From: an uncultured Chitinophaga sp.
Lineage (GTDB): Bacteria > Bacteroidota > Bacteroidia > 2-12-FULL-35-15
DNA: 64,000 nt
Assembly (NCBI GenBank): GCA_964549315.1
Contig: CAZJUY010000006.1
Coordinates: 45,639-109,638, forward strand
Direction: 5' to 3'
The translations under genes were made by a program, and so were the position numbers. The notes under the pieces were generated by a model. It had not been told where the DNA came from and did no database searches. It saw only the letters and a program-made list of their open reading frames with translations. Below, piece by piece: positions 7,505 through 53,732 of this stretch (the stretch's first letter is position 1; each line of letters opens with the position of its first letter).

Positions 7505-7582
7505 AATAGTAGTATTGGTATATCAAAAATAGAAAATCTCAACGAATATTCGTTGAGATTTTCACACTTGGTTCTTACTTAT

Positions 7583-11146: not shown

Positions 11147-11362
11147 AATAATCCTCCGTTTCTTTTAAATGGGTAAAACAATAAATTAAGAACTTACCTC
11201 TTTCAACGCCCCAAAAAATAAAGAGTTTCAAAAAAGCTAATAAAAATTCTATTTTGTTAATTAGCTGAAAGTGCCCAAAAATAAAAAGATACAAAAGGTT
11301 GAAACTTAATAAAATTTGTTTCGTACAACTATGCCAGTGGTTAGAATCTTTAAAGAAATAGC

Positions 11363-16617: not shown

Positions 16618-16634
16618 GTAATAAAAATAAGCTA

Positions 16635-17909: not shown

Positions 17910-18024
17910 AAATTATTCAATAAATATAACTGATTTAAGCATAAATTAAGTTTTTGTAATAATATTTTTTTAGATTTAATTTATTCCTAAATTAGCATAG
18001 GAATAAAGTTACCTCTTAAGAATT

Positions 18025-37226: not shown

Positions 37227-39272
37227 ATGCAAAGTAGGAGAAGAATCAACATAGCATTGCTAGTATTATTGTTGGCTGCTGTTGTAGGTTTGATTGTTGT
37301 TGAAAAAAATAAAAAGACAGAGAAACTTTCTGTCTCTTCGAATATTACTTTCCAAGATTCAACATATTACTCTGAATTATATGCCGAGTTTTTTAATTTC
37401 GAAAATATTGATTTAGGTATAACTGCTTCTAAAAAGACTTATTCTGGAACGCAAAGCACTATGCTTACTCCTGAAATTGAGTTTGGTTTTGGAATTACTA
37501 AATCTATTACCCAACTATCGGTATTAAAAAATACAGAACAAGTTATCATTGATTTTATGTGCATGTCTCCAATTGTAGATAGTAGCGTTCATTATGTTTT
37601 GTCTGTGAGTAATGCTAAAAACGAATCCGTTTTTTGGGATGGAAAACCAATTAAAATTGAAAAAGCAAATACTTGGATAAAAAGTCAAATTAAATTTAGC
37701 ATTAGTCCAGAATTGCTTATTCCTGAAAATACATTTCAATTTTATTTATGGAATAGAGATAAAAAGGAATTATACGTTGATGATTTAAATTTCACACTGT
37801 ATGGAAAAGTGATATATAAAGAGGAAAAATCAACACAAATTTCGTCTAATTATTTTTTTGATTTTGAAACAAATGATGGTTTGTCGGGCACAGATAATTT
37901 AAAAGCTTGTACTTCTCATTCAGGTAAAATAGCTTGCGATTTGAGTGAAGGACAAGAGTTTGGTGTTTCAGTTATAAAAACAGTAAAAGAAATAAGTGAT
38001 GCGCCTTTAACAAAAATAAGTGCTAGTGTTTGGTTTTACTCATTAGAAGAAAATACAAATACGCACCTTACGGCTTCAGTAGTAAACGATAAAAATGAAA
38101 CAGTGTTTTGGGGAGGAAAAGGAACGGATACTGGAAAATTTCCTAAGAATCAATGGACAAAATTGAATGTTTCGTTTGCTTTGCCTAGCGATAAAATCTC
38201 TATGAATGATGTGGTTCAAGTAAATATTTGGAATAAAGGAAAAAATAAAATTATTGTTGATGATTTAGAAATTATTTATGGCGATCAGCCAGAAAGAAAA
38301 GGGAAACCAAATGTTATAGACCCATCAGCATTTACAGGGAGCAGTTTTGTTCCTGAAAAAAACAAGCCTCCTTTTCAAATTTTGTATTTGAATAAACAGA
38401 TTGTTGATATTGATGTTTTGAAAAATTATAATTCAAATGACCAGTTTTTTTCTGGTGATTTTGTTAAAGACAAAAATAATTTGGATGAATTACTTAGTAT
38501 AAAAAACAATAAAGCTGAATTGTTGAAATTCAATACTGAACAAAAACAATTTATGAGCGTTTGGAAAAGCAGTTCTGATAATGATTTGACTTCAACAGAA
38601 ATATGGAATTCCAATAATTATATTTTTTCTGCAGATTTTAATGGCGATGAGAAAACAGATTTATTGACGATAGATAAGACTTCAGGGGAAACCAAACTTT
38701 ATAATTTTGAAACAAATAAATTTATTTTAAAAAATACGTTAAAAGGCATAGACAAAAAGCATTTAAAATATTTGAACAATATGAATGTTGTTTCCAACTT
38801 TAATATAAATAAACTGCCTGCTTTAGTTTATTTCACTGAAAAAAATATGGTATTACTTCAGTTGAAGGCTGACAAATTGGAAGAAAATCAAACAAACTTA
38901 ACTGGAGACTTTATGATTTTTAAAACTGCAGATAAACTATTTTCTATAGTTTCTTCTTCTCAAAAAAACACTTTATTAAGATTGAATACAGAATGGCGAT
39001 TTGATTTACAGCTAATTGAAAAAAACAGTTCAGAAATTAGCATTAAAAATGTTTTAGATTTTAAAGGATATGCTAATGACTACAATCCTAAATATTACGA
39101 ATACACAAAAATTATAATAGGAAGATTTATGGATAAAAATAGTTCTTCTGTTTTGGTTGTTTCCTGCAATTGTAAAGACGATAAGTTTGATGGTGTGCTT
39201 TGTAATGAAATTGAAAATTTAAAAGAATTACCCAATTCAATTAATATTTATTCAGTAGATGATGTTAAATAG
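37227..39272 (+). CDS. Single-TM hypothetical protein carrying two copies of a ~130-aa beta-rich domain shared with the C-termini of the GT-C-like proteins further right
   Basis: The likely start is MQSRRRINIALLVLLLAAVVGLIVV at 37227; the tracked ATG at 37185 overlaps the ABC gene. Domain copies end 'FQFYLWNRDKKELYVDDLNFTLYG' and 'VQVNIWNKGKNKIIVDDLEIIYGD'. Confidence 0.6.
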   Translation: MQSRRRINIALLVLLLAAVVGLIVVEKNKKTEKLSVSSNITFQDSTYYSELYAEFFNFENIDLGITASKKTYSGTQSTMLTPEIEFGFGITKSITQLSVLKNTEQVIIDFMCMSPIVDSSVHYVLSVSNAKNESVFWDGKPIKIEKANTWIKSQIKFSISPELLIPENTFQFYLWNRDKKELYVDDLNFTLYGKVIYKEEKSTQISSNYFFDFETNDGLSGTDNLKACTSHSGKIACDLSEGQEFGVSVIKTVKEISDAPLTKISASVWFYSLEENTNTHLTASVVNDKNETVFWGGKGTDTGKFPKNQWTKLNVSFALPSDKISMNDVVQVNIWNKGKNKIIVDDLEIIYGDQPERKGKPNVIDPSAFTGSSFVPEKNKPPFQILYLNKQIVDIDVLKNYNSNDQFFSGDFVKDKNNLDELLSIKNNKAELLKFNTEQKQFMSVWKSSSDNDLTSTEIWNSNNYIFSADFNGDEKTDLLTIDKTSGETKLYNFETNKFILKNTLKGIDKKHLKYLNNMNVVSNFNINKLPALVYFTEKNMVLLQLKADKLEENQTNLTGDFMIFKTADKLFSIVSSSQKNTLLRLNTEWRFDLQLIEKNSSEISIKNVLDFKGYANDYNPKYYEYTKIIIGRFMDKNSSSVLVVSCNCKDDKFDGVLCNEIENLKELPNSINIYSVDDVK

Positions 39273-41205
39273 ATTGTTTAATAAAGTAAAAAGGGAAGCA
39301 AGTATGCTATTACTTATAGTAATTGTATTGGCATCTTGTAATTCTGATAATAAAGACAAACAATCATTTTCTTGTGAGGATTTTTCTGTTCAAAATTTTA
39401 ACCCAATTGTAAACTATCAATCAGATAGCAGTAACAATAAAACTATTTATATTGACTATAACAATGCGTTGGATGGTTTTGTAATCCCTTCTGTAAATCA
39501 AACGGAGGATGGACAATTTGAGTTTGAATTTGAAATAAAAAATAAGAGCAAAAAAGCACAAAAATTTTATTACAAAATATATTATCAAAACGAAAGCTAT
39601 AAATTTTTAGAATATGATTCTTTGGCGAAAGCTCCAAATCCATTGGCCGAAGAAAATTTCTATGGAAGCTGGGAAGTTGCAGATGTTATTTTTAGAGAAA
39701 CTGCCTCTATTCCTTCTACTGAAGATTTTATTAAAATAAAAGACAAATTTCGTATTGTAGGGAACCCTAGAAATGAGTTGAGGTACTTTAATGAAAATGT
39801 GAACGACAGGTGGAAACGAAACCCAAGAGTAGGGAAGTATAAATTTATGTTGGTAGTTTGTACCGTAGAGGATTTGAAACTTATTCCTAATGAAATCAAA
39901 AATATTTGTATTAAAGAAAAAGAACATTTTATAAATCCATTTTATTATTATAATTATGGTGAAGGCAAGTCACTAAAACAATCTATTGTATATAATGCTT
40001 CTCAAGATTTAAATGTAATTGCGAAACCTAATTTGGGTGTAGGAATTTACATTAATGATATGATTTTTAAGGGAAATAATTATGATAGATCATACTTCTG
40101 CAAAACATGTGGGCAAGACAGCAATATCTACAAAAATTCTGCTATTCAACAATTTATAAATTATGTGGATGCATCCACTAAAATGGAAAATATTCCGGTG
40201 ATTGCCGATATTTTAAAAGACAACTATTCAAATATGGATTATAATTGGAACAAAAATTTTTATAAAAAAGAAGAATTGATTCCTACTTTAATTCAAACAT
40301 CTAAGCATCCTTGCCAAACCGTTTTTTCTGATGAAAAAGAAAATAAAATTGTGATTAAAAATCCTGCTACAAAATATGGCGAATGGAAAAAAGAAAGTGT
40401 AGGAATTATTACACGTCACGGTTTTACTTATGGTAAGTACAGAGTAAAAGTAAAGCTTACGGAATTACTAAATAAAAATGGAGTATGGAATGGTTTAACA
40501 AATGCAATTTGGTTAATTACACAAGGTGGTGGTGAATGGAATTACAGAAGAAATTGCAACAAAGAAGGTTATATGGCTAGTTACTGGGGAGGAAGGGATG
40601 ATAAACGTGTTCCAGCAGTGGATTATTCTGAAATAGATTTTGAAATATTAAAAACACCGCCTTATTGCCCTGACAATGCTTTTCCTCCAGTATTTAAAAA
40701 TTCAAAAGACAATAATAAAAATATAAATAGTTGGAATGTATCCATGCCTACTGATATTACTGACAATAAAAATAATATTACAGTAGCTTGTACCAATTGG
40801 GACATGGCTTGTTGGGAACCCAAAAACTTTGGAGTAGGTTGTAACGAATTAAAACACAAAGAACAAACATATTATACTCATCGTTGGGATCATTGGTACA
40901 GAGCCCTAACCGAAAAGAAAGAAGAGAATGATGATGAGCTTTTTGCAGGTGAATTTTATTATTTTGAAATAGATTGGCGCCCAACCGAAATTATTTGGCG
41001 TATAGGACCAAGTCCTGATAAAATGCGTGAGGTAGGTTATATGAATGAAACAGTAACTTCCATACCAAATAACCAAATGCTTTTAATAATAACACAAGAA
41101 TACCATAATACCAAGTGGTGGCCTGGCGCACCTTACTCACAAGATAATTTGCCATTCCCTTTGAATGATATTAAGGGTGAGATTTATGAGTTGGTGATTG
41201 AGTAA
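39259..41205 (+). CDS. Lipoprotein, possibly a GH16-like (concanavalin-fold) glycoside hydrolase
   Basis: Lipobox 'LIVIVLASCNSD'. 'VWNGLTNAIWLITQGG', then 'DYSEIDFEILK' (E-x-D-x-E, like the lichenase 'EIDIEFLG'), then 'YYFEIDWRPTEIIWRIG'. The call rests on motifs only. Confidence 0.4.
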   Translation: MMLNRLFNKVKREASMLLLIVIVLASCNSDNKDKQSFSCEDFSVQNFNPIVNYQSDSSNNKTIYIDYNNALDGFVIPSVNQTEDGQFEFEFEIKNKSKKAQKFYYKIYYQNESYKFLEYDSLAKAPNPLAEENFYGSWEVADVIFRETASIPSTEDFIKIKDKFRIVGNPRNELRYFNENVNDRWKRNPRVGKYKFMLVVCTVEDLKLIPNEIKNICIKEKEHFINPFYYYNYGEGKSLKQSIVYNASQDLNVIAKPNLGVGIYINDMIFKGNNYDRSYFCKTCGQDSNIYKNSAIQQFINYVDASTKMENIPVIADILKDNYSNMDYNWNKNFYKKEELIPTLIQTSKHPCQTVFSDEKENKIVIKNPATKYGEWKKESVGIITRHGFTYGKYRVKVKLTELLNKNGVWNGLTNAIWLITQGGGEWNYRRNCNKEGYMASYWGGRDDKRVPAVDYSEIDFEILKTPPYCPDNAFPPVFKNSKDNNKNINSWNVSMPTDITDNKNNITVACTNWDMACWEPKNFGVGCNELKHKEQTYYTHRWDHWYRALTEKKEENDDELFAGEFYYFEIDWRPTEIIWRIGPSPDKMREVGYMNETVTSIPNNQMLLIITQEYHNTKWWPGAPYSQDNLPFPLNDIKGEIYELVIE

Positions 41206-41238
41206 AAAAATTATATTTGTATAGTAAATTTTAGAGCG

Positions 41239-41973
41239 ATGTTTTATTATAAAAAATGGGCCATTGTAGTACCAATGGCAAACGAAGAAGAAGATTTTAA
41301 ACCATTTATAGAAATGGTGAATTTTGTGATTAATGAACTAAACCCAGGTAATGTTTATTTTATAATCGACAAAGCATCTAAGGATAGAACATTGGAGTTG
41401 TGTCAGGAATTATCAGCAAAAGACCCGCGTTATGTAACAGTTTGGGCGCCCGATAATAAAAATGTGGTAGATGCTTATGTTAAAGGATTACGTGTTGCTT
41501 ATGAAGCAGGACACGAGATTATTATTGAAATGGATGCAGGCTTATCGCATGACCCAAGAGCAATACCAATGTTTTTACGAGTATTGAACGAAGGAAATGA
41601 ATGTGCATTTGGAAGTAGATTTATTAATGGTGGTTCTATGGGCGATTCTCCTTTTAAACGCAGAATGCTTTCTAAAACGGGGACAGTATTAGCAAATATG
41701 CTTTTAGGAACAAAATTAAAAGACATGACATCTGGGTACCAAGGTTTTCATAGAGATGTAGTAGAAAAGATTATTAATCATGATTTTAAATCCAAAGCAC
41801 ATTTTTATCAAACAGAGTTAAGGTATTTATTACGTAAACGAAGAATGTTTGAAGTGCCAATTCATTATCAAGCACCATCTCCTCGTGTATCAAAAAATGC
41901 AATAAAAAATGCATATCAAACATTGTTTTATTATTTCTTTCAACGATTGATAGGAAATAAACCAACATTGTAG
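41239..41973 (+). CDS. Family-2 glycosyltransferase (polyprenol-phosphate sugar synthase-like)
   Basis: 'WAIVVPMANEEEDFKPF', 'YFIIDKASKDRT' and 'EMDAGLSHDP', the DxD/QxxD region of DPM1-like GT2 enzymes. Confidence 0.8.
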   Translation: MFYYKKWAIVVPMANEEEDFKPFIEMVNFVINELNPGNVYFIIDKASKDRTLELCQELSAKDPRYVTVWAPDNKNVVDAYVKGLRVAYEAGHEIIIEMDAGLSHDPRAIPMFLRVLNEGNECAFGSRFINGGSMGDSPFKRRMLSKTGTVLANMLLGTKLKDMTSGYQGFHRDVVEKIINHDFKSKAHFYQTELRYLLRKRRMFEVPIHYQAPSPRVSKNAIKNAYQTLFYYFFQRLIGNKPTL

Positions 41974-41983
41974 CACCTTGTCT

Positions 41984-42200
41984 TTTCGAACGAAACGTAG
42001 TGTAGAGAGAAAAGAAATCTTACAAATAATGAGATTCCTCTCTGCGGTCGGAATGACACATAAAAACTGTCATTTCGAACGGAATGAAATGAAGTGAGAA
42101 ATCTTACAAATAATGAGATTTCTCCTTACAGTCGAAATGACAAATAGGAATTGTCATTTCGAACGGAATAGAATGGAGTGAGAAATCTCTTAAAGTAGAC
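41984..42200. repeat. Array of ~85-bp REP-like repeat units (2.5 copies), each containing two hairpins, upstream of the GIY-YIG gene
   Basis: Unit 'TTTCGAACGGAATGAAATGAAGTGAGAAATCTTACAAATAATGAGATTTCTCC..GTCGGAATGACA....TGTCA'. Hairpin 1 is 'gagaaatct(N11)agatttctc'. Hairpin 2 is 'cggaatgaca(N9)tgtcatttcg'. Confidence 0.85.
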
Positions 42201-42210
42201 TTTTATTAAA

Positions 42211-42522
42211 ATGAACTACAATTATTTTATTTATATACTTACAAATAAGAATAAAACCGTACTATATATTGGAGTTACAAACAATTTGGAAAGAAGACTT
42301 TTAGGACACTCAAATATTTTCAAAAATAAGTTTAAATTTACGACTCGTTATAATTGTGTCCATTTGATTTATTATGAGAGGTTTTCAGATATTAATCAAG
42401 CAATAAAACGAGAAACAGAAATTAAAAAGTGGAGAAGGGAAAAGAAAGAAAATTTAATTAAATCAGTCAACCCTAAATGGGAATTTCTGAATGATGAAAT
42501 TAAAGAACGTTTTTTTGAATGA
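42211..42522 (+). CDS. GIY-YIG nuclease family protein (COG2827-type small URI-domain endonuclease)
   Basis: 103 aa. 'YFIYILTNKNKTVLYIGVTNNLERRLLGH' carries the GIY, YIG, Arg and His motifs. 'NQAIKRETEIKKWRREKKENLI' carries the catalytic Glu. Confidence 0.85.
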   Translation: MNYNYFIYILTNKNKTVLYIGVTNNLERRLLGHSNIFKNKFKFTTRYNCVHLIYYERFSDINQAIKRETEIKKWRREKKENLIKSVNPKWEFLNDEIKERFFE

Positions 42523-42525
42523 TGG

Positions 42526-42730
42526 GGTTTCTTCTCGCAATCAGAATGACAAACACGAAGCTGTCATTTCGAGTGAAGTGAAGCGAAACGAGAAATCTTT
42601 TAAATAATGAGATTTCTCCCTATGGGCGGAATGACAAATAGGGGATGTCATTTCGAACGAAATGCAATGAAGTGAGAAATCTTTTAAATAGTAAGATTCC
42701 TCCCAATGGTCGGAATGACAGTATAAATTT
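42526..42730. repeat. Second block (about 2.5 copies) of the same ~85-bp double-hairpin repeat, downstream of the GIY-YIG gene
   Basis: '...cagaatgacaaacacgaagctgtcatttcgagtgaagtgaagcgaaacgagaaatcttttaaataatgagatttctccctatgggcggaatgacaaataggggatgtcatttcgaacg...'. The six-frame ORF 42541..42906 (-) is just a translation of these repeats. Confidence 0.85.
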
Positions 42731-42793
42731 GAAAAAAACATAACGGTATAAATACTAATAAAAACTGCGCCTTTGCGCCTCAGCGGTAAAAAT

Positions 42794-43795
42794 ATGAAAT
42801 CACTAATTATAACATCTATTGCAAACGATAAACATCCAATCTTAAAACAATTTGCAAAAGAATGCAAAGAGCATAATACTCCTTTTATTGTAATAGGGGA
42901 TACCAAATCACCAGCTGAATTTGATCTTGAAGGCTGCGATTTTTGGAGTGTAGAACGTCAATTAACTTTGCCCTTTGAATTAGCAAAAATTACTCCTACA
43001 CGTCACTACTCAAGAAAAAACTTGGGTTATTTATTAGCCATAAAAAATGGCGCAACAGAGTTAGTTGAAACCGATGACGATAATATCCCACGCAAAGAAT
43101 TTTGGGAAGCAAAATCGCGTGAAGTAAAAAGTTACAAGTTTGAAAATACAGGTTGGGTAAATGTGTATCATTATTTTACCAAGCAAATGATTTGGCCTAG
43201 AGGATTTCCATTAGAAGAGTTGCAAAAAAAACAAATAGATACAGCTACTTTAAAATACGAAGCAATAAATTGCCCGATACAGCAAGGATTGGCTGATGAA
43301 AACCCAGATGTGGATGCCGTTTACCGATTAACTTATCCTTTGCCACTAAATTTTGAAATAAAAACACAATTGGCATTAGGAAAAAATGCATGGAGCCCAT
43401 TCAATAGCCAAAATACATATTGGTTTAAAGAAGCATTTGCATTAATGTATTTGCCATCTTATTGTAGTTTTAGGATGACAGATATTTGGCGCAGTTATGT
43501 AGCACAACGTATTGCTTGGGAATGTGGCTGGAGTGTTTTATATCATGAACCAACCGTTTGGCAAGAACGTAATGAACATAATTTGATGAAAGATTTTGAA
43601 GATGAGATTTCTGGCTACACTAATAATTTTAATATTTGTAAAGAATTACAAAGTCTTGAACTAAAAAAAGGACAAGAAAATATTTTTGATAATTTAATTA
43701 CCTGCTATCAAAAACTAATTGACATAAATGTAATTGGCAAAGAGGAGATGGTTTTGCTAAAAACTTGGGTTGGGGATTTAGGGAAATTGATTTAA
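42794..43795 (+). CDS. Hypothetical protein, possibly a nucleotide-sugar (GT-A-like) glycosyltransferase
   Basis: The likely start is 'MKSLIITSIANDKHP' at 42794; the tracked 42773 ATG lies inside a small dyad. Acidic 'ELVETDDDNIP' is DxD-like. The call rests on the locus context of glycosylation genes. Confidence 0.4.
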   Translation: MKSLIITSIANDKHPILKQFAKECKEHNTPFIVIGDTKSPAEFDLEGCDFWSVERQLTLPFELAKITPTRHYSRKNLGYLLAIKNGATELVETDDDNIPRKEFWEAKSREVKSYKFENTGWVNVYHYFTKQMIWPRGFPLEELQKKQIDTATLKYEAINCPIQQGLADENPDVDAVYRLTYPLPLNFEIKTQLALGKNAWSPFNSQNTYWFKEAFALMYLPSYCSFRMTDIWRSYVAQRIAWECGWSVLYHEPTVWQERNEHNLMKDFEDEISGYTNNFNICKELQSLELKKGQENIFDNLITCYQKLIDINVIGKEEMVLLKTWVGDLGKLI

Positions 43796-43805
43796 AATTG
43801 GACTT

Positions 43806-45677
43806 ATGTTTTCAAAAATTAACAAGAACAATAAAATTTCTCTTCTTGCAGTTTTTGTTATCTCTTTTATAATATTATACTTTCATTATACACTTCCTAG
43901 GTATAAATATTACGGATTTACAAAAGAATTTGAGTGGGATATTCTATCTTACTACTTGTATTTGCCTTTGACTTTTATTAAGCATGATTATGGGATAAGC
44001 GATTACGCTTATATTCAAACTATTTTTGAGCAGTATCATTTTTCTCCTTCTTTTTACCAAGCCAATCAGTTGCATAATGGTAATTGGGTAATGGTTTATA
44101 CATCTGGCATGGCAATTTTACAATTCCCCTTTTTTTGTATTGGACATCTTTGGGCTAACTTGGGAGGATATCCAATGGATGGATTTTCGTTCCCATATCA
44201 ATTTTGTGTTTCGACAGGGAATATGTTTTATATCATTTCTGGCATTTTTTTGATGAGAAAAATTTTATTGAACTATTTTTCTGACGGTATTGTATCGGTT
44301 ACTCTTATATTATTATTATTAGGTACAAATTATTTTCGAGAAGCGACAGACTATAATATGGGGCCTCACGCAATTCTTTTTGCATTATACTGTCTGCTGT
44401 TATTAAATACAATAAAATGGCATAAAACCCCGAAAATTAAATATTCTATACTTGTTGGAATTTCTGTAGGGTTTCTGACCTTAATTCGCCCAACAGAATT
44501 AATTTGTATTCTTATTCCAATTTTTTGGAATGTGAGTAGTCTGCAAACATTAAAAAATAAAATCAGTATTGTTAAACAAAATTGGAAACATTTACTAATA
44601 CTGGTATTTACGGTGCTCCTCGTTGGTTTGCCTCAAATAATTTATTGGAAATATTTAACCGGGTCATGGGTATATAATAGCTACGATAACCAAATATCTT
44701 TTGATATCTCCGAATCTCATTTATTTAAAATTTTATTTAGCTTTAGAAAAGGCTGGTTTGTATATTCTCCATTGATTGTTATTGCATTAATAGGAATCTA
44801 TTTTTTAGGTAGAAATAAATTAATGGAAGCGAGAAGCTCAATTGTTTTATTTATTATCTGCAATGTTTTTATTCTTTCTCATGTGCCTATTTGGTGGAAT
44901 GCTGGTAGTTTTGGGCAAAGATTTATGGTGCAATCTTATGCATTATTGGCACTTCCAATGGCTTGTTTTATAGAGATAATAATCTTTCAAAAAAAAATAT
45001 TTTACAAAATTCTATTAATTCCAATTTTTATCTTTCTTGTATTTTTGAATTTGTTTCAAACATGGCAATTTGTTAGATGGATTATTCCTGGAGATGGAAT
45101 TACAAAAGAATTTTATTTTCGGTCTTTTTTAAAAACTGCTGTTACAGAAGAAGATAGGTCTTATTTGGAATTACAAAGAACTTTTGATAATACTCAAAAA
45201 TTTGACGAGAATAATAAAGCCTATAAGTCAAAAATCCTTGCTTTTTATGATATTGAAAATTTCAAAAAAAATAATTTTGTTGATTCTGCAGGTCATGCTT
45301 TAAGTGGTAAAAAATCATTTATGATGACCAGTGAATATTGTTACTCTCCAGGTGTTGACACTTCATTCTTCGCAATAACCGCTAAGGATCATGCATGGAT
45401 AAAATTTAGTGTTTCTTTGTATTCTTTACGTGAATTAGAAGAGAAGGATGCAGTTATAGTGATGCACTTTTCTCATAAAGAAAAATTATATAGTTATATG
45501 GAATTCCCTTTTAAACAAGATCAAATTGCTGCCAAGAAATGGAATATTATAACAGCATATTATTTAACACCATCAGTTTTTTCAGAAGATGATAGGTTGA
45601 AAGCCTATGTTTGGTACAAAGGAAAAGATACATTATATGTTGATAATATCAAAATTGAGGCATTTGAAAAGAAATAA
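43806..45677 (+). CDS. Polytopic membrane protein, GT-C-superfamily-like, with a C-terminal extracytoplasmic beta-rich domain
   Basis: At least 10 TM segments in the N-terminal 420 aa. The C-terminal soluble domain ends 'LKAYVWYKGKDTLYVDNIKIEAFEKK'. The N-terminus 'MFSKINK' resembles that of the convergent neighbour. Confidence 0.6.
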   Translation: MFSKINKNNKISLLAVFVISFIILYFHYTLPRYKYYGFTKEFEWDILSYYLYLPLTFIKHDYGISDYAYIQTIFEQYHFSPSFYQANQLHNGNWVMVYTSGMAILQFPFFCIGHLWANLGGYPMDGFSFPYQFCVSTGNMFYIISGIFLMRKILLNYFSDGIVSVTLILLLLGTNYFREATDYNMGPHAILFALYCLLLLNTIKWHKTPKIKYSILVGISVGFLTLIRPTELICILIPIFWNVSSLQTLKNKISIVKQNWKHLLILVFTVLLVGLPQIIYWKYLTGSWVYNSYDNQISFDISESHLFKILFSFRKGWFVYSPLIVIALIGIYFLGRNKLMEARSSIVLFIICNVFILSHVPIWWNAGSFGQRFMVQSYALLALPMACFIEIIIFQKKIFYKILLIPIFIFLVFLNLFQTWQFVRWIIPGDGITKEFYFRSFLKTAVTEEDRSYLELQRTFDNTQKFDENNKAYKSKILAFYDIENFKKNNFVDSAGHALSGKKSFMMTSEYCYSPGVDTSFFAITAKDHAWIKFSVSLYSLRELEEKDAVIVMHFSHKEKLYSYMEFPFKQDQIAAKKWNIITAYYLTPSVFSEDDRLKAYVWYKGKDTLYVDNIKIEAFEKK

Positions 45678-45679
45678 AA

Positions 45680-47653
45680 CTATTGTAAGATAATGCTCAA
45701 GTTGTCAACATAAAAATTATTTTCGGAAGGGTTCCAAAAATAAATTTTTAAAATAGCATCCTTTGGTAAGTTATTTGGTAAAATAGATTTCATGCTTATT
45801 TCTTTCCAAACTTCAATTTCTTTAATTTTTTCTGGAATAAATAGTTCTTCTCTAAAAAGTGTTTGGTTTTCTTTTTCAACCGAAACAACTAGGTGAGAAG
45901 TATTACCTTCTTTACAAAAAATAAAAGAAGAAATAATGATTGTTTTTTTTGTGTCTAGCTCTAAAATAGGTTTTGTAATTCCAATGCTGTACTCGTTGTT
46001 TTTATTCAATTTTAAACTGTATTTGCCGTCAAAATATATTTCACTAGAAGTTTCAGAAACATCTTTACATCCTTCTTTTTTTTCGAATGATGTTTTATAA
46101 ACATCTACCGTGTCTTTGTTTGAGTCAATTCCTGCAAAACATTCAAAAACATCACATTTTGCGTTTTTGTTTTTTGTAATAATTTTTACAGGATTACATT
46201 CTAAATTGTTTTTTACAAATAGGGTATATCCCGTATTTATTTTTTTATAATTATCACACTCTTTAAATCCTTTCGAAAGAATAAAAGCATAATTAGCATT
46301 TTCTGGGTCTTCAAATTGGTTGTGAGATTGTACGTATATTATTTTATTAATAGAATCAAAGTTTAATTTTTTCCAGCCAAACCATTCATCCTTTGCAGAA
46401 AAATAGACATTTTTTTTAGCAAGCGCCTCTGCGCTATTTTTGTAGTTTTTAAATGCGCTTAAATCATAGTAAAAAGAAAAATCTTTAAATTTATAAGAGG
46501 CGCAAATAAAGATAACAGTATTCTCATCCTGCATTTTTTTTACCATAGGAACAAAGTGTTTCCAATCATCTTCTCGTTCTTGTGTTATTCTGAAAGATGA
46601 AAAAATAAACAGTAATAGAGGTAAAATGAATGCAAGTTTGTATACATTATTTAACTTAATGTTTGCAAAACAATAGGCTATAAGTAAAAATAGGCCCAAA
46701 CTACTATATAAAATATAACGAGTTAGAAATACAGGAGTGTATTGGGCTATAAAAAAATCCAATCCTATCGGAATAATAAATAATAAGGTAAAAACTGTAA
46801 AATATTTAGAATTGAAATTTTCGTAATACACCCCAATTTTTTTATTTACTATCACTAGAAAAACAAATAAGAATACTAATGTGAGGAATATATAAAACAA
46901 ATTATTATTACCCATTAACAAGTTCGTATGCCATCTAAAATCAGCATAGTTTGGTGCATGTGACCAAAACGATCCTTCTTTAGGAATATTAGATAACAAA
47001 ACATTTACCCATGGTAAAAATGCTAGACTTACTAAAATTTGGCTGGTAAAATAATAGACAACAATTTTTTTATTTTCTTTTAAGAAAAACCAAATACATA
47101 AAAATTGAACAACAAAAATAAAAATTGTTAAATAATGAGTGTAGAGGAGTAGAGTATTTGTTAGGAATAAAAAAATGATATCTCTTTTGTTTTGAGATTT
47201 AATAATATTGAAATAAAAATAAAAGGATAAAATGCATAACAATTGAATTAATGCATAGGGTCTTACTTCAGTAGCGTAAAACTGTTGTGCATTTGAAAAT
47301 AGAAAAAGAAAAGACACTAAATAAGCTGATTGTTTGTTTATGTGCTTTTTTGTAAACAAAAAAAGTACTAATCCTGCTAATGCGCTACATATTACAGAAA
47401 ACATTTTAGCTGACACATCAGAAATCCCAAATATTTTAATCCAAAAATGTAACAATGCTATATGCATTGGTGGATTTTGATCATGCAAAAAAATTTCTTT
47501 TAGTTCTGATAAGCTCTTTTGTGCTTGAAAAATACTGTAAGGTTCGTCACCATACAAACTTTCATTTGTAATTTCATAGCTTCTCACAAAGATGGTGAGC
47601 GATAAAAAAGTCAAAACAAAAAATAGTAAAGGTTTGTTAATCTTTGAAAGCAT
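45680..47653 (-). CDS. GT-C-family glycosyltransferase (ArnT/PMT-like, polyprenol-phosphate-sugar dependent) with a C-terminal beta-rich domain
   Basis: 'LYGDEPYSIFQAQKSL...HDQNPPMHIALLHFWIKIFG' is the first periplasmic-loop DE motif typical of the GT39/GT83 families. There are ~11 TM segments. The C-terminus is '...AILKIYFWNPSENNFYVDNLSIILQ'. Confidence 0.75.
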   Translation of the reverse strand: MLSKINKPLLFFVLTFLSLTIFVRSYEITNESLYGDEPYSIFQAQKSLSELKEIFLHDQNPPMHIALLHFWIKIFGISDVSAKMFSVICSALAGLVLFLFTKKHINKQSAYLVSFLFLFSNAQQFYATEVRPYALIQLLCILSFYFYFNIIKSQNKRDIIFLFLTNTLLLYTHYLTIFIFVVQFLCIWFFLKENKKIVVYYFTSQILVSLAFLPWVNVLLSNIPKEGSFWSHAPNYADFRWHTNLLMGNNNLFYIFLTLVFLFVFLVIVNKKIGVYYENFNSKYFTVFTLLFIIPIGLDFFIAQYTPVFLTRYILYSSLGLFLLIAYCFANIKLNNVYKLAFILPLLLFIFSSFRITQEREDDWKHFVPMVKKMQDENTVIFICASYKFKDFSFYYDLSAFKNYKNSAEALAKKNVYFSAKDEWFGWKKLNFDSINKIIYVQSHNQFEDPENANYAFILSKGFKECDNYKKINTGYTLFVKNNLECNPVKIITKNKNAKCDVFECFAGIDSNKDTVDVYKTSFEKKEGCKDVSETSSEIYFDGKYSLKLNKNNEYSIGITKPILELDTKKTIIISSFIFCKEGNTSHLVVSVEKENQTLFREELFIPEKIKEIEVWKEISMKSILPNNLPKDAILKIYFWNPSENNFYVDNLSIILQ

Positions 47654-47654
47654 G

Positions 47655-48374
47655 TTAGGAGCTGAAATTATACTTTAATATACACCAAATAGCTCTAAAT
47701 CCATCTTTCCAGCCAATTTTTTTGCCTTCTTCATAAGTTCTTCCGTAATAAGAAATTCCAACTTCATAGATTCGAATTTTTGGCACTTTAGAAATTTTTG
47801 CTGTTATCTCTGGTTCAAAACCAAAACGTTTTTCTTTTAGTTTTATATTTTGTATGATTTCTGTTTTAAATAATTTATAACAGGTTTCCATATCTGTTAA
47901 ATTTAAATTGGTAAACATATTGGATAAAAATGTCAAAAATTTATTTCCTATAGTATGCCAAAAAAATAAAATACGATGAGGTTCGCCACCAATAAATCTA
48001 GAGCCATAAACCACATCAGCAAAGCCATTTGCAACGGGTTTTAATAAAATATTATACTCTTCTGGGTCGTATTCTAAATCGGCATCTTGAATAACTATAT
48101 ATTCCCCAGTCGCTAATGAAATTCCTTTGTGTAATGCAGCTCCTTTTCCTTGATTATATTCTTGATTGAATAAGCGAATGTTAAATTGACTGTGCTCGGA
48201 AATATATTTTTCAATTACTTCTTTTGTTCCGTCATTTGAATAATCATTAACAATGATTATTTCTTTTTCAATATTATTTATTAATTCTACTGCAATTACC
48301 TTGTTTAATATTAGGTGAATTGTTGCTGCCTCATTATAAGCAGGAATAATTATAGATAATTTTTTAATTTGCAT
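47655..48374 (-). CDS. Family-2 glycosyltransferase, ArnC/DPM1-like (polyprenol-phosphate sugar synthase)
   Basis: '[14 protein letters not shown]', '[12 protein letters not shown]' and '[12 protein letters not shown]'. The stop (47655) is 2 bp from the stop/start region of the GT-C gene, an operon-like arrangement. Confidence 0.85.
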
Positions 48375-48376
48375 TT

Positions 48377-48467
48377 AATTAGAATAACTAATTCATTTTA
48401 ATTGCATTGTTTTTAAAAGCAATTCTTGTTTATTTGGATTCCAAAGATAAACTTTTAATTCGTCTCC
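48377..48467. repeat. Copy A of a 91-bp near-identical direct repeat (1 mismatch versus 50611..50701). It is a relic of the 3' end of the 50609..52504 gene and abuts the GT2 start codon.
   Basis: 'aattagaataactaat[t/c]cattttaattgcattgtttttaaaagcaattcttgtttatttggattccaaagataaacttttaattcgtctcc' is present at both sites. On the minus strand it encodes '...GDELKVYLWNPNKQELLLKTMQLK'. Confidence 0.9.
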
Positions 48468-48544
48468 CATTTTAATTTCAGATTGATTCTGTTATACTAA
48501 GTTATGCCGTCTTTAGTCCCATTCTACAATGGCGAATTAAAATT

Positions 48545-50440
48545 TCATTGCTGATTTTCAATAATCCAAAGTGCATCAATATAGATAGCAGAATCGAGTG
48601 GTATGTTTTTTGTTTTTGCTTTTTCCTCTATTTCTTTTACCCATGCTGGTACACTTTTAATTTCAAGCATTTTGTTAAAAAGTATTTTTTCTTTTGTAAG
48701 AGTGCTATCGTAAACAAAATTTAAATCTAATTTGAGAACATACGCAGCATTTTTTTTAAGGGCTGTTTCCTCTGATATGTTTTCATTTAATGCTTGTTGT
48801 TTAATAATAGCGTACCATTCAGGAGTTGATTTTATCTCTTTGCTTTTTGAATAAATTTTGTTTTTAGCAATAAATTGCTTTAGTTTAATTGGAGATAGAA
48901 TCCCAATAAAATTATAATCTACATCTATATAGGCCCAATTGTTATTATATTTTAAACAATAACTAATAGAATCAATTGCTTCTTTAGTCAATCCTACATG
49001 TTCAAGATTTTTTAAATAATCGCGATGAACCAATAGTTTAGTAATGTTGTCATCTTCTTTCATATAATAAAAAGGAGATGCGTTAGGGCTACTCATTAGT
49101 TCGGGGAAGTATCTTGAAATAAAAATTACATTATCCGGATTGTAAAGCCGAGGGTAATTTTCAAAAAACCAGTTGGATAAAGGCTTTGGTTGATTCGTAT
49201 CCCAATCATATTTAGTTAATGTGGCATGATAATAAACGGTAGCAATTTGTGTGATTATTGAGAAGTAAATAATAATCTTTTGAATTGCTTCTTTTTGTAA
49301 GTCCATTACTAAATAAAAAAAGTGCACCAAAATAAATCCACTAATATAAGTCACGTACCTTAAAACAACTGATTGCCCATGATTCCAGTCATATATTGTT
49401 GCGGAAATGCAAATAGCGCCTATCATTGAAAATACAATAATTAGATCTAAAAATGGGACACCTTTTTTTATAAAAACAATTTTTCTAACAATAAGAAAAA
49501 TATAAGCGAATAAAACAAATGGTATAGCTAGTATTGCACCTTGATTAACATCAAAAAAGAATCCAACAATTCTGTTTACAGTAACATAGTCAAAACTTAA
49601 TGCTCCTTGGTATTTTATCAAATTAGTTTCCCCAAAATGATAGAAATAGAATACTGAAGGGATAAAAACGATTAATATACTCAAGCCGATTTTAATTAAA
49701 TTTTTTAAATTTATTCCGTTGATATATATTACATAAAGTGATAATCCAGCTATGACAATGGCAATGGGTTGATTTTGTAATGAGGCTAAAGAAATTAAGA
49801 ATAACCCCCAATAATATTTTTTAGAAAGAAACAGCCAAAGACCTAATGTTGCAAAACAAACAGTTGCAATTTCAGGGTGTTGCCATGATAAATACCAATA
49901 GTTAGTGGAATAAAAAAATAAAAAAATAAATGCAGCTGTTTTAAATTCATCAAATACAGAGAATTTGAATAGTAGGAAACAGGTTATTAATAATAAAATT
50001 AAATTTGTTAAAATTCCTATAAACAAGGGATTAAAGCCAATAATATTGCAAAGAATTTTTGAAGGAATATTTAATAAAGAGTAGAAAAAAAAGTGAACAC
50101 TAAATTGCTTCCCATCTTTACTAGTAAAAAAGCGATAGTCAAAATCTAATTTTTTATGGTTCTTTTGTGCTACATACTCTTGAACTTCATCATAGTATTT
50201 TGATTTTTGATTGGTTTCCCACTTGTTTACTTTACAGTACGCCTTTTTAAATGATTCAAAATCTTCTTTATTTACGTCAGGACTAAAATGATTATACAGA
50301 GCCTCTGTTGTGATGGTATATTCTACTGCATCTCCATTAGGATACAAAGGTTTTTCCTTGCTTAAGCGAATAATTGCTAAAATGGTAATTAATAATAGAA
50401 CTACTGTTTTGTACATATTTATTTTCAAGCGCATGCTCAT
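48545..50440 (-). CDS. Polytopic membrane protein, GT-C-like (hypothetical)
   Basis: 'YPNGDAVEYTITTEALY' in the first loop, then ~11 TM segments. Its C-terminal domain differs from that of the neighbouring paralog-like genes. Confidence 0.55.
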   Translation of the reverse strand: MSMRLKINMYKTVVLLLITILAIIRLSKEKPLYPNGDAVEYTITTEALYNHFSPDVNKEDFESFKKAYCKVNKWETNQKSKYYDEVQEYVAQKNHKKLDFDYRFFTSKDGKQFSVHFFFYSLLNIPSKILCNIIGFNPLFIGILTNLILLLITCFLLFKFSVFDEFKTAAFIFLFFYSTNYWYLSWQHPEIATVCFATLGLWLFLSKKYYWGLFLISLASLQNQPIAIVIAGLSLYVIYINGINLKNLIKIGLSILIVFIPSVFYFYHFGETNLIKYQGALSFDYVTVNRIVGFFFDVNQGAILAIPFVLFAYIFLIVRKIVFIKKGVPFLDLIIVFSMIGAICISATIYDWNHGQSVVLRYVTYISGFILVHFFYLVMDLQKEAIQKIIIYFSIITQIATVYYHATLTKYDWDTNQPKPLSNWFFENYPRLYNPDNVIFISRYFPELMSSPNASPFYYMKEDDNITKLLVHRDYLKNLEHVGLTKEAIDSISYCLKYNNNWAYIDVDYNFIGILSPIKLKQFIAKNKIYSKSKEIKSTPEWYAIIKQQALNENISEETALKKNAAYVLKLDLNFVYDSTLTKEKILFNKMLEIKSVPAWVKEIEEKAKTKNIPLDSAIYIDALWIIENQQ

Positions 50441-50465
50441 TAAGTAAAAGTAATATTATCTTGTT

Positions 50466-50606
50466 ATCTTAATTTTTTTAGTCTGAATGTCAATCCAATT
50501 ATGAATACTTCCTTCTGTATAGGTTCTAAAATAGTAGAAAAATTCTGATTTGTAAATTCTAATTCAAAACATCTTTTATCTAATTTAATATTTTGTATGA
50601 TTCTCA
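50466..50606 (-). pseudogene. Decayed, internally deleted remnant of an ArnC-like GT2 gene
   Basis: The minus-strand ORF 'MRIIQNIKLDKRCFELEFTNQNFSTILEPIQKEVFIIGLTFRLKKLR' aligns to residues ~172-215 of the intact GT2 at 47655..48374 ('[42 protein letters not shown]'). It shares a 15-nt identical stretch 'aatcatacaaaatat'. Its ATG sits directly after copy B of the 91-bp repeat, just as the intact GT2 follows copy A. Confidence 0.6.
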
Positions 50607-50608
50607 TT

Positions 50609-52504
50609 TTAATTAGAATAACTAATCCATTTTAATTGCATTGTTTTTAAAAGCAATTCTTGTTTATTTGGATTCCAAAGATAAACTTTTAATTCGTCTC
50701 CTGATTTAGTTTGAATAGGAATATCGTTCGCAGAAAAATTCGCACTGAATACACCTTTTGAACTATAAATGAAATCATTTAATCGGTAATTTTTCCAAAA
50801 ATATAGTGAGCCCTTTTCTTGTAGTGACATTATAAAAAATACATTCCCAGCTATATTTTGGTTAGTTTCAAATTCTACTTGGCAAGAAAGAGCTGTTCTG
50901 CCCTTTGGCAAACTGTCGAGTAAAACAATGTTAATTCCCGGACTATATTCAACTTCCGAATTTATTTTAAATGATGAATAATTAGCAATTGTATCAATAA
51001 AAATGCTTGTTTTTTTGAAAATTAATTTTGGTTTTGCTAACACATTTTTAGTAATAGGATAGATCTTAATTATTTCTAATGAATCAACATTTTCATTTTT
51101 TAAATCTTCTGGTCTTAAAAAAAAATAGTCGTCTAAATAGCTAATTCTTTTTGCACGCATTGTTTGGTTTAACCAGTTAAGTTGGTTTGTATTTCTATAA
51201 AAATTTATACTACTTTCTAATGATAGTGGAATGCCTATTGATAGATTAAATTTTTCAGACGACACTTTTTTTATTTTTTCCAAATCGGATAACATGTCTT
51301 TTGTTTCGCAATCGTCTTTCCACTCATAAACATATTTAAAATTAATCGAAAACAGGAAATGTACAATCACGAATAAGGCGAACAGATGAAGACAAACTTT
51401 GTATATATTCTTTTTCAACATTAACTCTTTTACTAAAAAAATAAATACAACTAAAAAAATAGCATATAAAAACAAGACTGCTCTTTCTATCAAATACAGC
51501 GTGCCCAATAAATAATGTTGTAAAACAGTAAAAAATAATATTCCTAGGAATAATAAAAGCATTACCGTTAAAGAGGATAAGTTTTCTGATTTTTTATTTT
51601 TTAAAAAATTGAAAATACTATAGTATAATGCTATGAATATTACAATAAGAATAAATCCCTTGGAAAGTCTTATTAAATAGTATGAAAAATCTAGTCCGTA
51701 CCATAATCGTGGAATAATAGTTCCTAGTGTATCGGTCCATAATCCACTTTCGCCACCCATAAACAACGCTCCAGCTTTACGTAATTCAAAAGAATAGGGT
51801 AGTATTAGAAACAAGAAAGAACCGAATAGGAATGTTGGTAGTAAAAGTTGGTAAATGGTTTTTTTAATAGCATTTATCTTGTTAGTGTTTTTATTATAAT
51901 TGTTATAGAAAAAAATCAGAATGATAATACAGTACAGAACGAAAAAGTAGTTTAATAATGTTAAATTACCTAGTGTGCCTAATGCTGCAAATAGTAGAGA
52001 AATTACAGCATATTTTATTTTAATTTTTTCTGAATTAAACTCAAACAAATAGTATATGCTTGGCATTAAAAATCCTAAAGAAATTCCATATCCGCGAGAT
52101 AATGAAAAAAAATCTAGCATAAAAGGGTTTAAATTCAAAATTAAAAAAGCAGAAATAGAAACCCATTTATTGTTTAATTTGAGAGTTAATTTAGCAGAAT
52201 AGAAAAGAAAAAACAGGTGAGAAAATAGAGTAGTTAGTCGAAGCGTAAATTCAGAAACGCCAAATAGTTTTGTGAAAAAAATCCCTCCAATTGAATTTAG
52301 TATATGATTGTTTGCTGACATCACTCCAAATTCCTTTGGATAATATATCCCGTGCTTAATAAATTCTAAATATGTATAAGATTCATCCCAAGTAATTGAA
52401 AGAAGGTAAGCTCGAGTTACAGTGTATGAAAAAATTAAAACTCCAAAAACAATGATTGTTATGAATGCAATCTTATTTTTGGAGTAAGGATTATTATTTA
52501 GCAT
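50609..52504 (-). CDS. Polytopic membrane protein, GT-C-like, with the shared C-terminal beta-rich domain
   Basis: 'SITWDESYTYLEF' is a DE-type first-loop motif. There are ~12 TM segments. The C-terminus 'GDELKVYLWNPNKQELLLKTMQLKWISYSN' is encoded by repeat copy B. Confidence 0.6.
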   Translation of the reverse strand: MLNNNPYSKNKIAFITIIVFGVLIFSYTVTRAYLLSITWDESYTYLEFIKHGIYYPKEFGVMSANNHILNSIGGIFFTKLFGVSEFTLRLTTLFSHLFFLFYSAKLTLKLNNKWVSISAFLILNLNPFMLDFFSLSRGYGISLGFLMPSIYYLFEFNSEKIKIKYAVISLLFAALGTLGNLTLLNYFFVLYCIIILIFFYNNYNKNTNKINAIKKTIYQLLLPTFLFGSFLFLILPYSFELRKAGALFMGGESGLWTDTLGTIIPRLWYGLDFSYYLIRLSKGFILIVIFIALYYSIFNFLKNKKSENLSSLTVMLLLFLGILFFTVLQHYLLGTLYLIERAVLFLYAIFLVVFIFLVKELMLKKNIYKVCLHLFALFVIVHFLFSINFKYVYEWKDDCETKDMLSDLEKIKKVSSEKFNLSIGIPLSLESSINFYRNTNQLNWLNQTMRAKRISYLDDYFFLRPEDLKNENVDSLEIIKIYPITKNVLAKPKLIFKKTSIFIDTIANYSSFKINSEVEYSPGINIVLLDSLPKGRTALSCQVEFETNQNIAGNVFFIMSLQEKGSLYFWKNYRLNDFIYSSKGVFSANFSANDIPIQTKSGDELKVYLWNPNKQELLLKTMQLKWISYSN

Positions 52505-52512
52505 GAATGAAT

Positions 52513-53169
52513 TTATTCAATAATCATTTCTGGTATTTCTCCTTCTACAATTAGTTTTCCTTCCGTAGCATTTTTTATTTGCTCAACACTAATGCCAGGT
52601 GCACGTTCTAATAATTTAAATCCTTGTGGTGTAACATCCAGCACTGCTAATTCTGTTACTATTTTTTTTACACATTTTACTCCTGTCAATGGCAAAGTAC
52701 ATTTGGTCAAAAGTTTAGATTCACCTGCTTTATTTACATGTTGCATTGCAACAATAATATTTTTTGCTGATGCAACTAAATCCATTGCGCCACCCATTCC
52801 TTTTACCATCTTGCCTGGTATCTTCCAATTGGCAATATCTCCATTGTCGGCAACTTCCATTGCACCCAGAATAGTTAAATCTACTTTACGTGATCTAATC
52901 ATTCCAAAGCTCATAGCTGAATCAAAAAATACAGAACCAGGAACTGTAGTGATAGTTTGTTTTCCTGCATTTATTAAATCAGGGTCTTCTTCTCCTTCAA
53001 AAGGAAATGGTCCCATTCCAAGTAACCCATTTTCAGATTGTAAAACAACATTCATTCCTTGAGGAATATAATTAGCCACTAACGTAGGAATACCAATTCC
53101 AAGATTTACGTAATAACCATCTTTAATTTCTTTTGCGATACGTTTCGCTATTCCAACCTTGTCTAACAT
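52513..53169 (-). CDS. scoB: 3-oxoacid CoA-transferase subunit B
   Basis: 'VNLGIGIPTLVANYIP', 'VVLQSENGLLGMGP' and 'SFGMIRSRKVDLTILGAMEV'. Length is 218 aa. Confidence 0.85.
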   Translation of the reverse strand: MLDKVGIAKRIAKEIKDGYYVNLGIGIPTLVANYIPQGMNVVLQSENGLLGMGPFPFEGEEDPDLINAGKQTITTVPGSVFFDSAMSFGMIRSRKVDLTILGAMEVADNGDIANWKIPGKMVKGMGGAMDLVASAKNIIVAMQHVNKAGESKLLTKCTLPLTGVKCVKKIVTELAVLDVTPQGFKLLERAPGISVEQIKNATEGKLIVEGEIPEMIIE

Positions 53170-53259
53170 ATTAATTTGAAAATTTGAAAGTGTGTCAATT
53201 TGAAAATGGTATTCTCGTTAACACATTATCTGTTTTACTTCGATTCCGTTTTTAATGTT

Positions 53260-53625
53260 TTAATTTGAGTTTATTATAGTTTTATTTTTTGAAGAAGAAA
53301 TAATCTTCGACAATATTTTAACAATCTCTTTTATTTCTTTTTGTAGCAATTCACAATCAGGGTAATTTTCCGATTTTTGGCACAACAATAACCAATACTC
53401 TGTTTCATCTGCTTCTTTGGCTGCAATTTTCATTTTGTGAATAAAATCTGCCTTGCTTTCTGCATTTTGCGCCTCTCTAACATTTGCTCCAATTGATGTT
53501 CCTGACTTTAATAATTGATTTGCAATTACATATTTTCTGTTGGACTCCAACTGTTCGGCAAACTCAACAATCAATAAAGCAAACTCAAACGTTTTTTCAA
53601 CAATAATATTTGGTTTCTCTTGCAT
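53260..53625 (-). CDS. Four-helix-bundle protein (TIGR02436 family, homolog of the 23S rRNA intervening-sequence protein), inserted between scoA and scoB
   Basis: 'KTFEFALLIVEFAEQL...IANQLLKSGTSIGANVREAQNAESKADFIHKMKIAAKEADETEYWLLL'. Confidence 0.8.
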   Translation of the reverse strand: MQEKPNIIVEKTFEFALLIVEFAEQLESNRKYVIANQLLKSGTSIGANVREAQNAESKADFIHKMKIAAKEADETEYWLLLCQKSENYPDCELLQKEIKEIVKILSKIISSSKNKTIINSN

Positions 53626-53732
53626 AGAAATTTTAATTCCTTTTTTAATTTTTTCGTTTTCTCTATTGGAACAGACATCAATCTTTTAATGATGTCAGCA
53701 TTTTCAAATTTCCAAATTGAAAAATTTCCAAA

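Follow-up and report, generated by a model that had tools for sequence, protein, structure and literature searches.

The window analysed here is a stretch of 64,000 nucleotides (nt) from an uncultured Chitinophaga sp. (assembly GCA_964549315.1, contig CAZJUY010000006.1), and the subject is a domain of ~140-155 amino acids (aa), hereafter the module, that recurs on proteins encoded in an island at 37.2-52.5 kb of this low-GC sequence (GC content ~29-32%), between an ABC-ATPase gene on the left (35411-37216) and CoA-transferase genes on the right (52513-54440). Four genes of the island encode module-bearing proteins: A (37227-39272, + strand; 681 aa), with a signal anchor of the N-in type, two tandem modules and a C-terminal region of ~325 aa with FG-GAP-like repeats; F (43806-45677, +; 623 aa), with a polytopic membrane domain resembling the glycosyltransferases (GT) of the GT-C type and a C-terminal module; G (45680-47653, -; 657 aa), with a GT-C domain of the PMT_2 type, a presumably periplasmic region of ~160 aa and a C-terminal module; and J (50609-52504, -; 631 aa), with a polytopic membrane domain of a third type, again followed by the module. 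The original prediction, made from the letters of the window, had located these open reading frames (ORFs) and quoted their C-terminal motifs correctly, and the tandem pair in A and the single terminal copies on F, G and J were borne out by profile matches; however, it counted five carrier proteins, whereas there are five copies on four proteins.

The copies lie at 37362-37808 and 37812-38288 (A1 and A2, both +), 45219-45674 (F, +), 45683-46099 (G, -; the copy used for structure modelling) and 50621-51034 (J, -), and they are homologous over the whole domain. When profiles built from four copies were scored against the 274 six-frame segments of the window, the left-out copy was recovered with 69.4 bits (E 4.5e-21) for A1, 53.8 bits (E 3e-16) for A2, 55.4 bits (E 9.1e-17) for F and 35.1 bits (E 1.7e-10) for J, the most divergent copy, in which 'LLLKT' stands in place of 'YVDD'; the best unrelated segment reached ~5 bits (E ~0.1), against 35-69 bits for the left-out copies. 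In BLASTP searches of a small local database, G matched both A copies with 22-30% identity over 132-138 aa (E ~2-4e-6) and F matched G at E 1e-3; the match of J to G (E 0.3) is not significant alone, and pairwise identities among the copies are 16-30%. Because the alignments span 132-138 aa and the leave-one-out scores are of this order, the similarity extends beyond the short motif, a point on which the original prediction had let its case depend. The boundaries required revision. The segment 'VFW.GK', taken earlier for the beginning of the domain, lies in its middle, 'Y.WN' following ~38 residues later, and only the A-type copies typically have it; the module begins with the (D)FE strand ~115 residues upstream of 'Y.WN', not ~90 residues upstream of the signature, so that a shared domain proposed at ~130 aa is real and somewhat longer. 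A sixth copy was not found in the window by the profile search, and the remaining polytopic protein of the island, I, is without the module.

The extent of the family became visible only in an exhaustive HMM (hidden Markov model) profile search over 1.84 billion cluster representatives (50% identity), which returned 2,986 representatives at E <= 1e-3, 756 of them at E <= 1e-10; the word-indexed search with the five-copy profile had given two close fragments. The family, the definition of which the earlier reading had left to iterated searches, thus comprises ~3,000 clusters. The members with organism names are nearly all from Bacteroidota (Bacteroidia, Bacteroidales, Marinilabiliales), and the sources label the proteins 'hypothetical protein' or 'uncharacterized membrane protein', save for two function-type JGI labels; no member with a characterised function turned up among them. 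Architectures were counted among the 150 best representatives: the architecture of A, with an N-terminal anchor, two modules and a region of at least 200 aa, is found in 54, and polytopic proteins with C-terminal modules number 36 (one copy in 23, two in nine and three in four). Small one- or two-module proteins with a lipoprotein signal peptide account for nine more and small module proteins with a transmembrane (TM) anchor for four, the rest being mostly short apparent fragments, partial polytopic proteins and proteins outside these classes. The membrane domains that bear the module belong to at least three groups without detectable mutual similarity, namely the F-type (31 relatives), the G-type or PMT_2 group (7-10) and the J-type (by jackhmmer in a local pool), and, since the module is fused to all of them, the sequences indicate its repeated shuffling among membrane domains.

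A CBM-like (carbohydrate-binding module) or jelly-roll beta-sandwich had been among the folds suggested for the domain, and such a fold was obtained. The AlphaFold2 model of the G copy, calculated from a 31-sequence alignment, is all-beta, with a pLDDT (predicted local distance difference test) of 91.1 and a pTM (predicted template modelling score) of 0.84; an earlier model from a five-sequence alignment (pLDDT 63.6) was not used for the fold search. The modelled fold is a beta jelly-roll of the galactose-binding-domain-like kind, closest to CBM22 in the fold search, and polysaccharide-binding CBMs provide both the top structural matches and the only sequence matches of significance; the same jelly-roll superfamily also gave protein-binding domains (ephrin receptor, MAM and toxin receptor-binding domains). 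Against the PDB sequences, the 31-sequence profile matched the CBM22-1/CBM22-2 tandem 4xup (E 8.8e-7) and 4xun (E 1.6e-3), the alignment running through the W...Y..W...YVDD strands and so including the conserved W as well as the Y..W strand and the closing YVDD strand; the five-copy profile gave no match in the same database. CBM_4_9 was the most frequent Pfam match in the family, always sub-threshold (three of the 31 members, best E 0.0019). Neither Pfam nor NCBIfam has a model that covers the module, be it in the window proteins or in their homologues, and the precomputed Pfam field was '-' for 82 of the 82 homologues. True membership of Pfam CBM_4_9 (PF02018) was rejected, as all matches remain below threshold. 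Model and profiles together point to a remote relative, on a divergent branch of the jelly-roll superfamily of the CBM_4_9/CBM22 type, rather than to a member of CBM22, and the module escapes current domain libraries. The original prediction could not place the domain in any known family and would have yielded to its mapping to a named CBM family; the first holds as far as Pfam and NCBIfam models are concerned, and the second has come about in part, through the remote kinship to the named CBM_4_9/CBM22 group below the Pfam threshold. The signature that first drew attention is largely the common C-terminal core of this superfamily.

A survey of 223 family segments, numbered after residues 506-657 of G, found D17-F18-E19, S37-G38, W111 (100%), P121, Y133 (87%), W135 (92%), N136, D145 (98%) and D146 (86%) to be the best-conserved positions, among which W111, Y133, W135 and N136 are candidates for residues of a ligand cleft, judging from conservation.

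The membrane domains are less uniform in their support. By crude hydropathy, F has about 10-11 hydrophobic segments, G nine, J at least eight and the module-free protein I (48545-50440, -; 631 aa) at least seven, and all four are thus polytopic in the manner of GT-C enzymes (about 7-13 TM helices). The GT-C assignment is demonstrated for G only, with Pfam PMT_2 at 35.8 bits against a cut-off of 26.1, its NCBIfam matches lying far below cut-off. For F it is sub-threshold (PMT_2 20.9 bits; NCBIfam LA_3751/3752 family at E 2.7e-10, below cut-off). J gave no match in Pfam, NCBIfam or the PDB sequences, I none in Pfam or NCBIfam, and single-sequence PDB searches with F, G and J returned nothing useful. 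No relative of the J membrane domain was found among the 150 best representatives, and in the local pool no jackhmmer match connected the J or the I membrane domain with that of F or of G. In all four an acidic motif read from the sequence follows TM1 ('YGDEPYS' in G, 'TWDESYTY' in J, 'EWDILSYY' in F, 'NGDAVEY' in I), at a position that would fit the GT-C motif. The claim of three polytopic GT-C-like carriers consequently stands for G, is weaker for F and is only presumptive for J. The module follows the last hydrophobic segment at the C-terminus of F, G and J. In G, residues ~361-520 form an extra soluble region of ~160 aa between this segment and the module, without a library match and with the same degree of conservation as the membrane domain (73% identity to the orthologue in locus L006, described below). 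Protein I, in turn, ends in a 250-aa tail with two similar helical-looking repeats, 'KSTPEWYAIIKQQALNENISEETALKKNAAYVL' and 'KSVPAWVKEIEEKAKTKNIPLDSAIYIDALWII'.

The remaining genes of the island include two small GT2 glycosyltransferases that resemble polyprenyl-phosphate hexose synthases, C (41239-41973, +; 244 aa) and H (47655-48374, -; 239 aa), of which H sits 2 nt upstream of G. C matches Pfam Glycos_transf_2 at E 4e-15, with sub-threshold NCBIfam matches to PgfS, the best of them, and to a dolichyl-phosphate hexose transferase; H matches Glycos_transf_2 at E 1e-34, its top NCBIfam match being AglJ (E 2e-29, under the cut-off). E (42773-43795, +; 340 aa) is a STELLO-like glycosyltransferase (Pfam STELLO 44.5 bits, cut-off 27.8). 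B (39259-41205, +; 648 aa) has a lipoprotein-type N-terminus and a C-terminal domain that is probably a very divergent relative of glycoside hydrolase family 16 (GH16). Between C and E there is a small GIY-YIG ORF (42211-42522, +; 103 aa), flanked by palindromic repeat units of ~85-95 nt, a single one at 42100-42194 and a tandem array of two to three at 42518-42728 with a spacing of 84-85 nt. The repeats and the ORF make up an insertion of ~800 bp, C and E abutting or nearly so in the related loci L001 and L006; the core palindrome does not occur elsewhere in the window, Rfam gave no match in 36-54 kb, and the insertion looks like a small mobile or REP-like element. Outside the island, the window encodes two large cargo proteins of the type IX secretion system, at 458-3892 (+; GEVED, Ig_7 and Por_Secre_tail) and at 7583-11146 (-; SprB repeats, PKD and CHU_C), and a run of TPR/SpoIIE-phosphatase and Y_Y_Y/Reg_prop regulator genes at 5960-17909. 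The cargo proteins assign the organism to Bacteroidota, as do the names borne by the homologues.

The genomic context was compared over seven loci on six contigs, each contig from a different assembly or metagenome sample (a single-protein scan of genome contigs had given two loci), and was found to be consistent. In L001, from a Bacteroidia metagenome-assembled genome (MAG), the same chromosomal slot holds, in order, the ABC gene, C, E, A, B, an F-like GT-C with module, H, a 171-aa stand-alone module protein and the CoA-transferase gene. In L003-L005, from Bacteroidales MAGs, a GT2 with 75% identity to H is followed by an anchored module protein of 208 aa and then by an F-like GT-C with its own module. 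Orthologues of H (73-87% identity) adjoin module genes in L001, L003 and L008, the linkage of GT2 and GT-C is kept in L001, L003-L005 and L008, and in both L001 and L006 E keeps C and A as its neighbours. The nearest relative that was found, L006 (GCA_021155045.1), is unevenly similar to the window, with identities of 98% for C, 90% for E, 81% for B, 78% for I, 68% for G and 54% for A; in G, identity is 50% over the module and 71% over the membrane domain. The islands also differ in how many polytopic genes they hold and of which type, with four in the window and one in L001, and the flanking genes for the ABC-ATPase and the CoA-transferase are in each case the same. The uneven identities to L006 and the uneven gene content suggest that this glycosylation island is variable and subject to local recombination or to diversifying selection.

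Lectin-type domains of another fold are met in the same setting. The F-like enzyme of L008 (5552-7342, -) has a C-terminal beta-trefoil (DUF7910/FRG1/fascin-like, residues 498-592) at the module position, with two stand-alone trefoil proteins nearby (17518-18536, -), and in polytopic proteins of L006 (18908-20734, -) and L007 (15536-17380, -) a large loop contains a Ricin-B lectin domain. Pairs of ALGX and MBOAT genes, of the polysaccharide O-acyltransferase type, were observed a few genes from the module genes in L003 (10779-13567) and L009 (12886-17133), which hints at an acylated envelope polysaccharide as a possible target.

Proteins A and B form a constant pair within this variable setting. 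In the window the two genes overlap by 14 nt, the start of B lying within the end of A, and in eight of eight pairs (the window, L001, L002, L006, L007, L008 twice, and L009) the B gene comes immediately after an A-type gene. In A, the N-in signal anchor (RRR followed by a TM segment at 7-25) was identified by hydropathy, and the representative P0003 begins at the same Met. FG-GAP_3 is weak in A (E 0.049) and FG-GAP lies above cut-off in the homologue P0013 (30.8 bits), so that the region behind the modules in this architecture contains FG-GAP repeats in some members. B has at least 1,613 homologues, of which the best 120 listed are 56-95% identical; those with a source name are all 'hypothetical', and the organisms, where given, are Bacteroidota. 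No Pfam or NCBIfam match was obtained for B. It has an invariant E458-I-D-F-E462 motif together with the 'YYFEIDWRPTEIIW' strand, and its matches in the PDB were four GH16 beta-1,3-glucanases only, at E ~2, the profile search being no better than the single sequence. B is probably a very divergent GH16-like enzyme, and the GH16 assignment, resting on these matches, is a lead rather than a finding.

The reading that we consider the most plausible, with moderate confidence, is that the module is an extracytoplasmic tether or docking module for the acceptor glycan. Systems that attach sugars to envelope glycans outside the cytoplasm typically have a GT2 gene beside genes of the GT-C type. According to this reading, C and H would load sugar onto polyprenyl phosphate, and F, G and probably J would move it to an envelope glycan on the periplasmic side, where the C-terminal module would bind the acceptor polymer and thereby raise its local concentration at the active site or select the acceptor. 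The stand-alone modules, in the small anchored proteins elsewhere and in the tandem copies of A, would present or hold the same glycan, and A would hold it for the neighbouring GH16-like lipoprotein B. The tether is favoured because the C-terminal CBMs of EmbC, AftD and ORF12, treated below, are known to bind the acceptor polymer, the first two as summarised in PMC11127046. The replacement of the module by a lectin-type beta-trefoil in L008 adds to its support. As for the location, an outer side of the cytoplasmic membrane is supported by the N-in anchor of A, the A-type anchor architecture of the 54 representatives and the lipoprotein signals of nine, and the GT-C-borne modules are presumed from these anchors and signals to lie on the same side. 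A glycan-recognition module exposed outside the cytoplasm on GT-C enzymes, as proposed from the letters alone, therefore agrees with the CBM22-like fold, the lipoprotein and anchored members, the linkage of GT2 and GT-C and the trefoil swap, with the qualification that its enzymes are demonstrated GT-Cs in the case of G alone.

Several observations weigh against the tether. No GtrA-like flippase gene was found when the ORFs of at least 100 aa at 33-56 kb were examined, and the island has too little space between its genes to hold one, although such a gene could be encoded elsewhere. The per-domain i-E values of the PDB CBM22 matches are weak (0.02 and 1.4), and none of the window copies reaches Pfam CBM_4_9 even at E <= 1. 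The aromatic residues W111, Y133 and W135 may line an exposed cleft or lie in the core, sugar binding by the module is presumptive, and the GT-C nature of J and I is presumed from hydropathy and the acidic motif after TM1. The hydropathy counts of TM segments (F 10, G 9, J 8) do not fix the side of the C-terminus. The acceptor and the roles of A and B are likewise presumptive.

A wider reading, which we regard as speculative, starts from the A-B pair, with A as an anchor with two modules and an FG-GAP propeller and B as a lipoprotein, conserved at 55-95% across its homologues, with an intact ExDxE GH16-like motif. The pair might be a widespread periplasmic machine for glycan remodelling or transglycosylation, working with variable module-bearing GT-C enzymes as side-chain transferases; the module might then found a new CBM family for an endogenous envelope glycan of Bacteroidota, and its fast turnover might drive the diversity of surface glycans. 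The pair is the least understood piece of the island and the most worth an experiment.

Among the alternatives to the glycan tether, the one that survives best, though we hold it to be rather unlikely, is a protein- or peptide-binding beta-sandwich without sugar binding, which would recruit protein acceptors for periplasmic O-glycosylation of the Pmt/PgfM type or dock the GT-C enzymes to such partners as A and B. G does belong to the PMT_2 family, and the best NCBIfam similarity of C is to PgfS, the GT2 of the streptococcal protein O-glycosylation pathway; protein O-glycosylation is extensive in Bacteroidota, and the jelly-roll superfamily of the module holds the protein-binding domains named above. 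However, polysaccharide-binding CBMs are the top structural matches of the module and its sole significant matches by sequence, paralogues of its carriers bear lectin-type beta-trefoils at the same position, and the CBMs of the precedent GT-C enzymes bind glycans. A purely structural or spacer domain, which would give the enzyme stability in the periplasm, fix how far it stands from the membrane or the outer membrane, or help hold the lipid-linked donor without recognising the acceptor, is improbable. It would agree with the absence of YVDD from the J copy, with the dispensability of the ORF12 CBM described below, and with the best-conserved motifs, (D)FE and Y-x-D-D, being common to the core strands of the CBM_4_9 type and possibly of structural importance only; but stand-alone anchored proteins beside GT2 and GT-C pairs, one to three tandem copies and replacement by lectin-type trefoils are not expected of a spacer, and the faster divergence of the G module than of its membrane domain is a pattern more typical of a specificity element. 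Chance or compositional likeness of short motifs in an AT-rich genome, which the low pairwise identities and the insignificant J-G match might have suggested, is refuted by the leave-one-out scores far above background, the size of the family in the exhaustive search and the confident common fold, and retains a negligible probability.

Returning to the module as an acceptor-glycan tether, several known systems may be compared. The CBM22 xylan-binding modules, such as CBM22-1/-2 of Paenibacillus barcinonensis Xyn10C (4XUP, 4XUN, 4XUO) and the CBM22 of C. thermocellum Xyn10B (1H6X, 2W5F), have the jelly-roll fold in common with the predicted module, to which they are 15-22% identical, under the Pfam threshold. 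They are, however, borne by secreted glycoside hydrolases, whereas the module is found on presumed biosynthetic membrane glycosyltransferases and periplasmic anchors. The accessory lectin-type domains of polyprenyl-phosphate-sugar-dependent GT-C enzymes, namely the MIR/beta-trefoil domains of eukaryotic PMTs and, on the island paralogues, the Ricin-B and FRG1-like trefoils, are placed on the extracytoplasmic side, as is presumed for the module, and differ in having a beta-trefoil in place of a jelly-roll. With the systems of the GtrABC type and of the Pmt/PgfS-PgfM type (GT2, flippase and GT-C) the island shares a small GT2 adjoining a GT-C, as seen for H-G in the window and for the GT2, module protein and GT-C of L003-L005. 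It differs from them in being without a GtrA-like gene, within the search given above, and in its short GT2s (239-244 aa), the orthologues of which have no hydrophobic segment in a crude scan.

The nearest precedent is the GT136 enzyme ORF12 of Citrobacter youngae O1/O2, in which a GT-C with a C-terminal CBM (residues 503-652) belongs to a three-component polyprenyl-phosphate-sugar system (PMC11127046). This CBM binds the unmodified acceptor O-polysaccharide and is dispensable for activity in vitro under the conditions tested (PMC11127046). The likeness lies in a GT-C of ~650 aa, an all-beta C-terminal domain of ~150 aa and a GT2-type polyprenyl-phosphate sugar synthase encoded alongside. The differences are another phylum and another GT-C family, a CBM described as Ig-like, which was compared with the module by description only, and the flippase and epimerase genes, neither of which was seen in the island. 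The mycobacterial arabinosyltransferases EmbA/B/C and AftD likewise combine a CBM-type beta-sandwich with a GT-C enzyme, and their periplasmic lectin-like domains, as summarised in PMC11127046, bind the acceptor glycan and improve catalysis.

By analogy, the architecture and the presumed mechanism of the module-bearing enzymes appear to match those of the known GT-C enzymes with CBMs and would not constitute a new principle. What is new is an unannotated family of ~3,000 clusters, its named members almost all from Bacteroidota, with its fusion to different membrane domains, its stand-alone forms and the strict A-B pairing. The CBM22-like label gives these clusters, nearly all unannotated, a testable role, in that it marks the polytopic carriers as putative periplasmic glycosyltransferases acting on a polymeric acceptor and makes of the isolated module a soluble handle with which the acceptor glycan might be fished out. 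The design of a GT-C with an acceptor-binding CBM would thus be extended from Actinobacteria and Enterobacteria to Bacteroidota, where the module has apparently moved between unrelated membrane domains and been exchanged for beta-trefoils.

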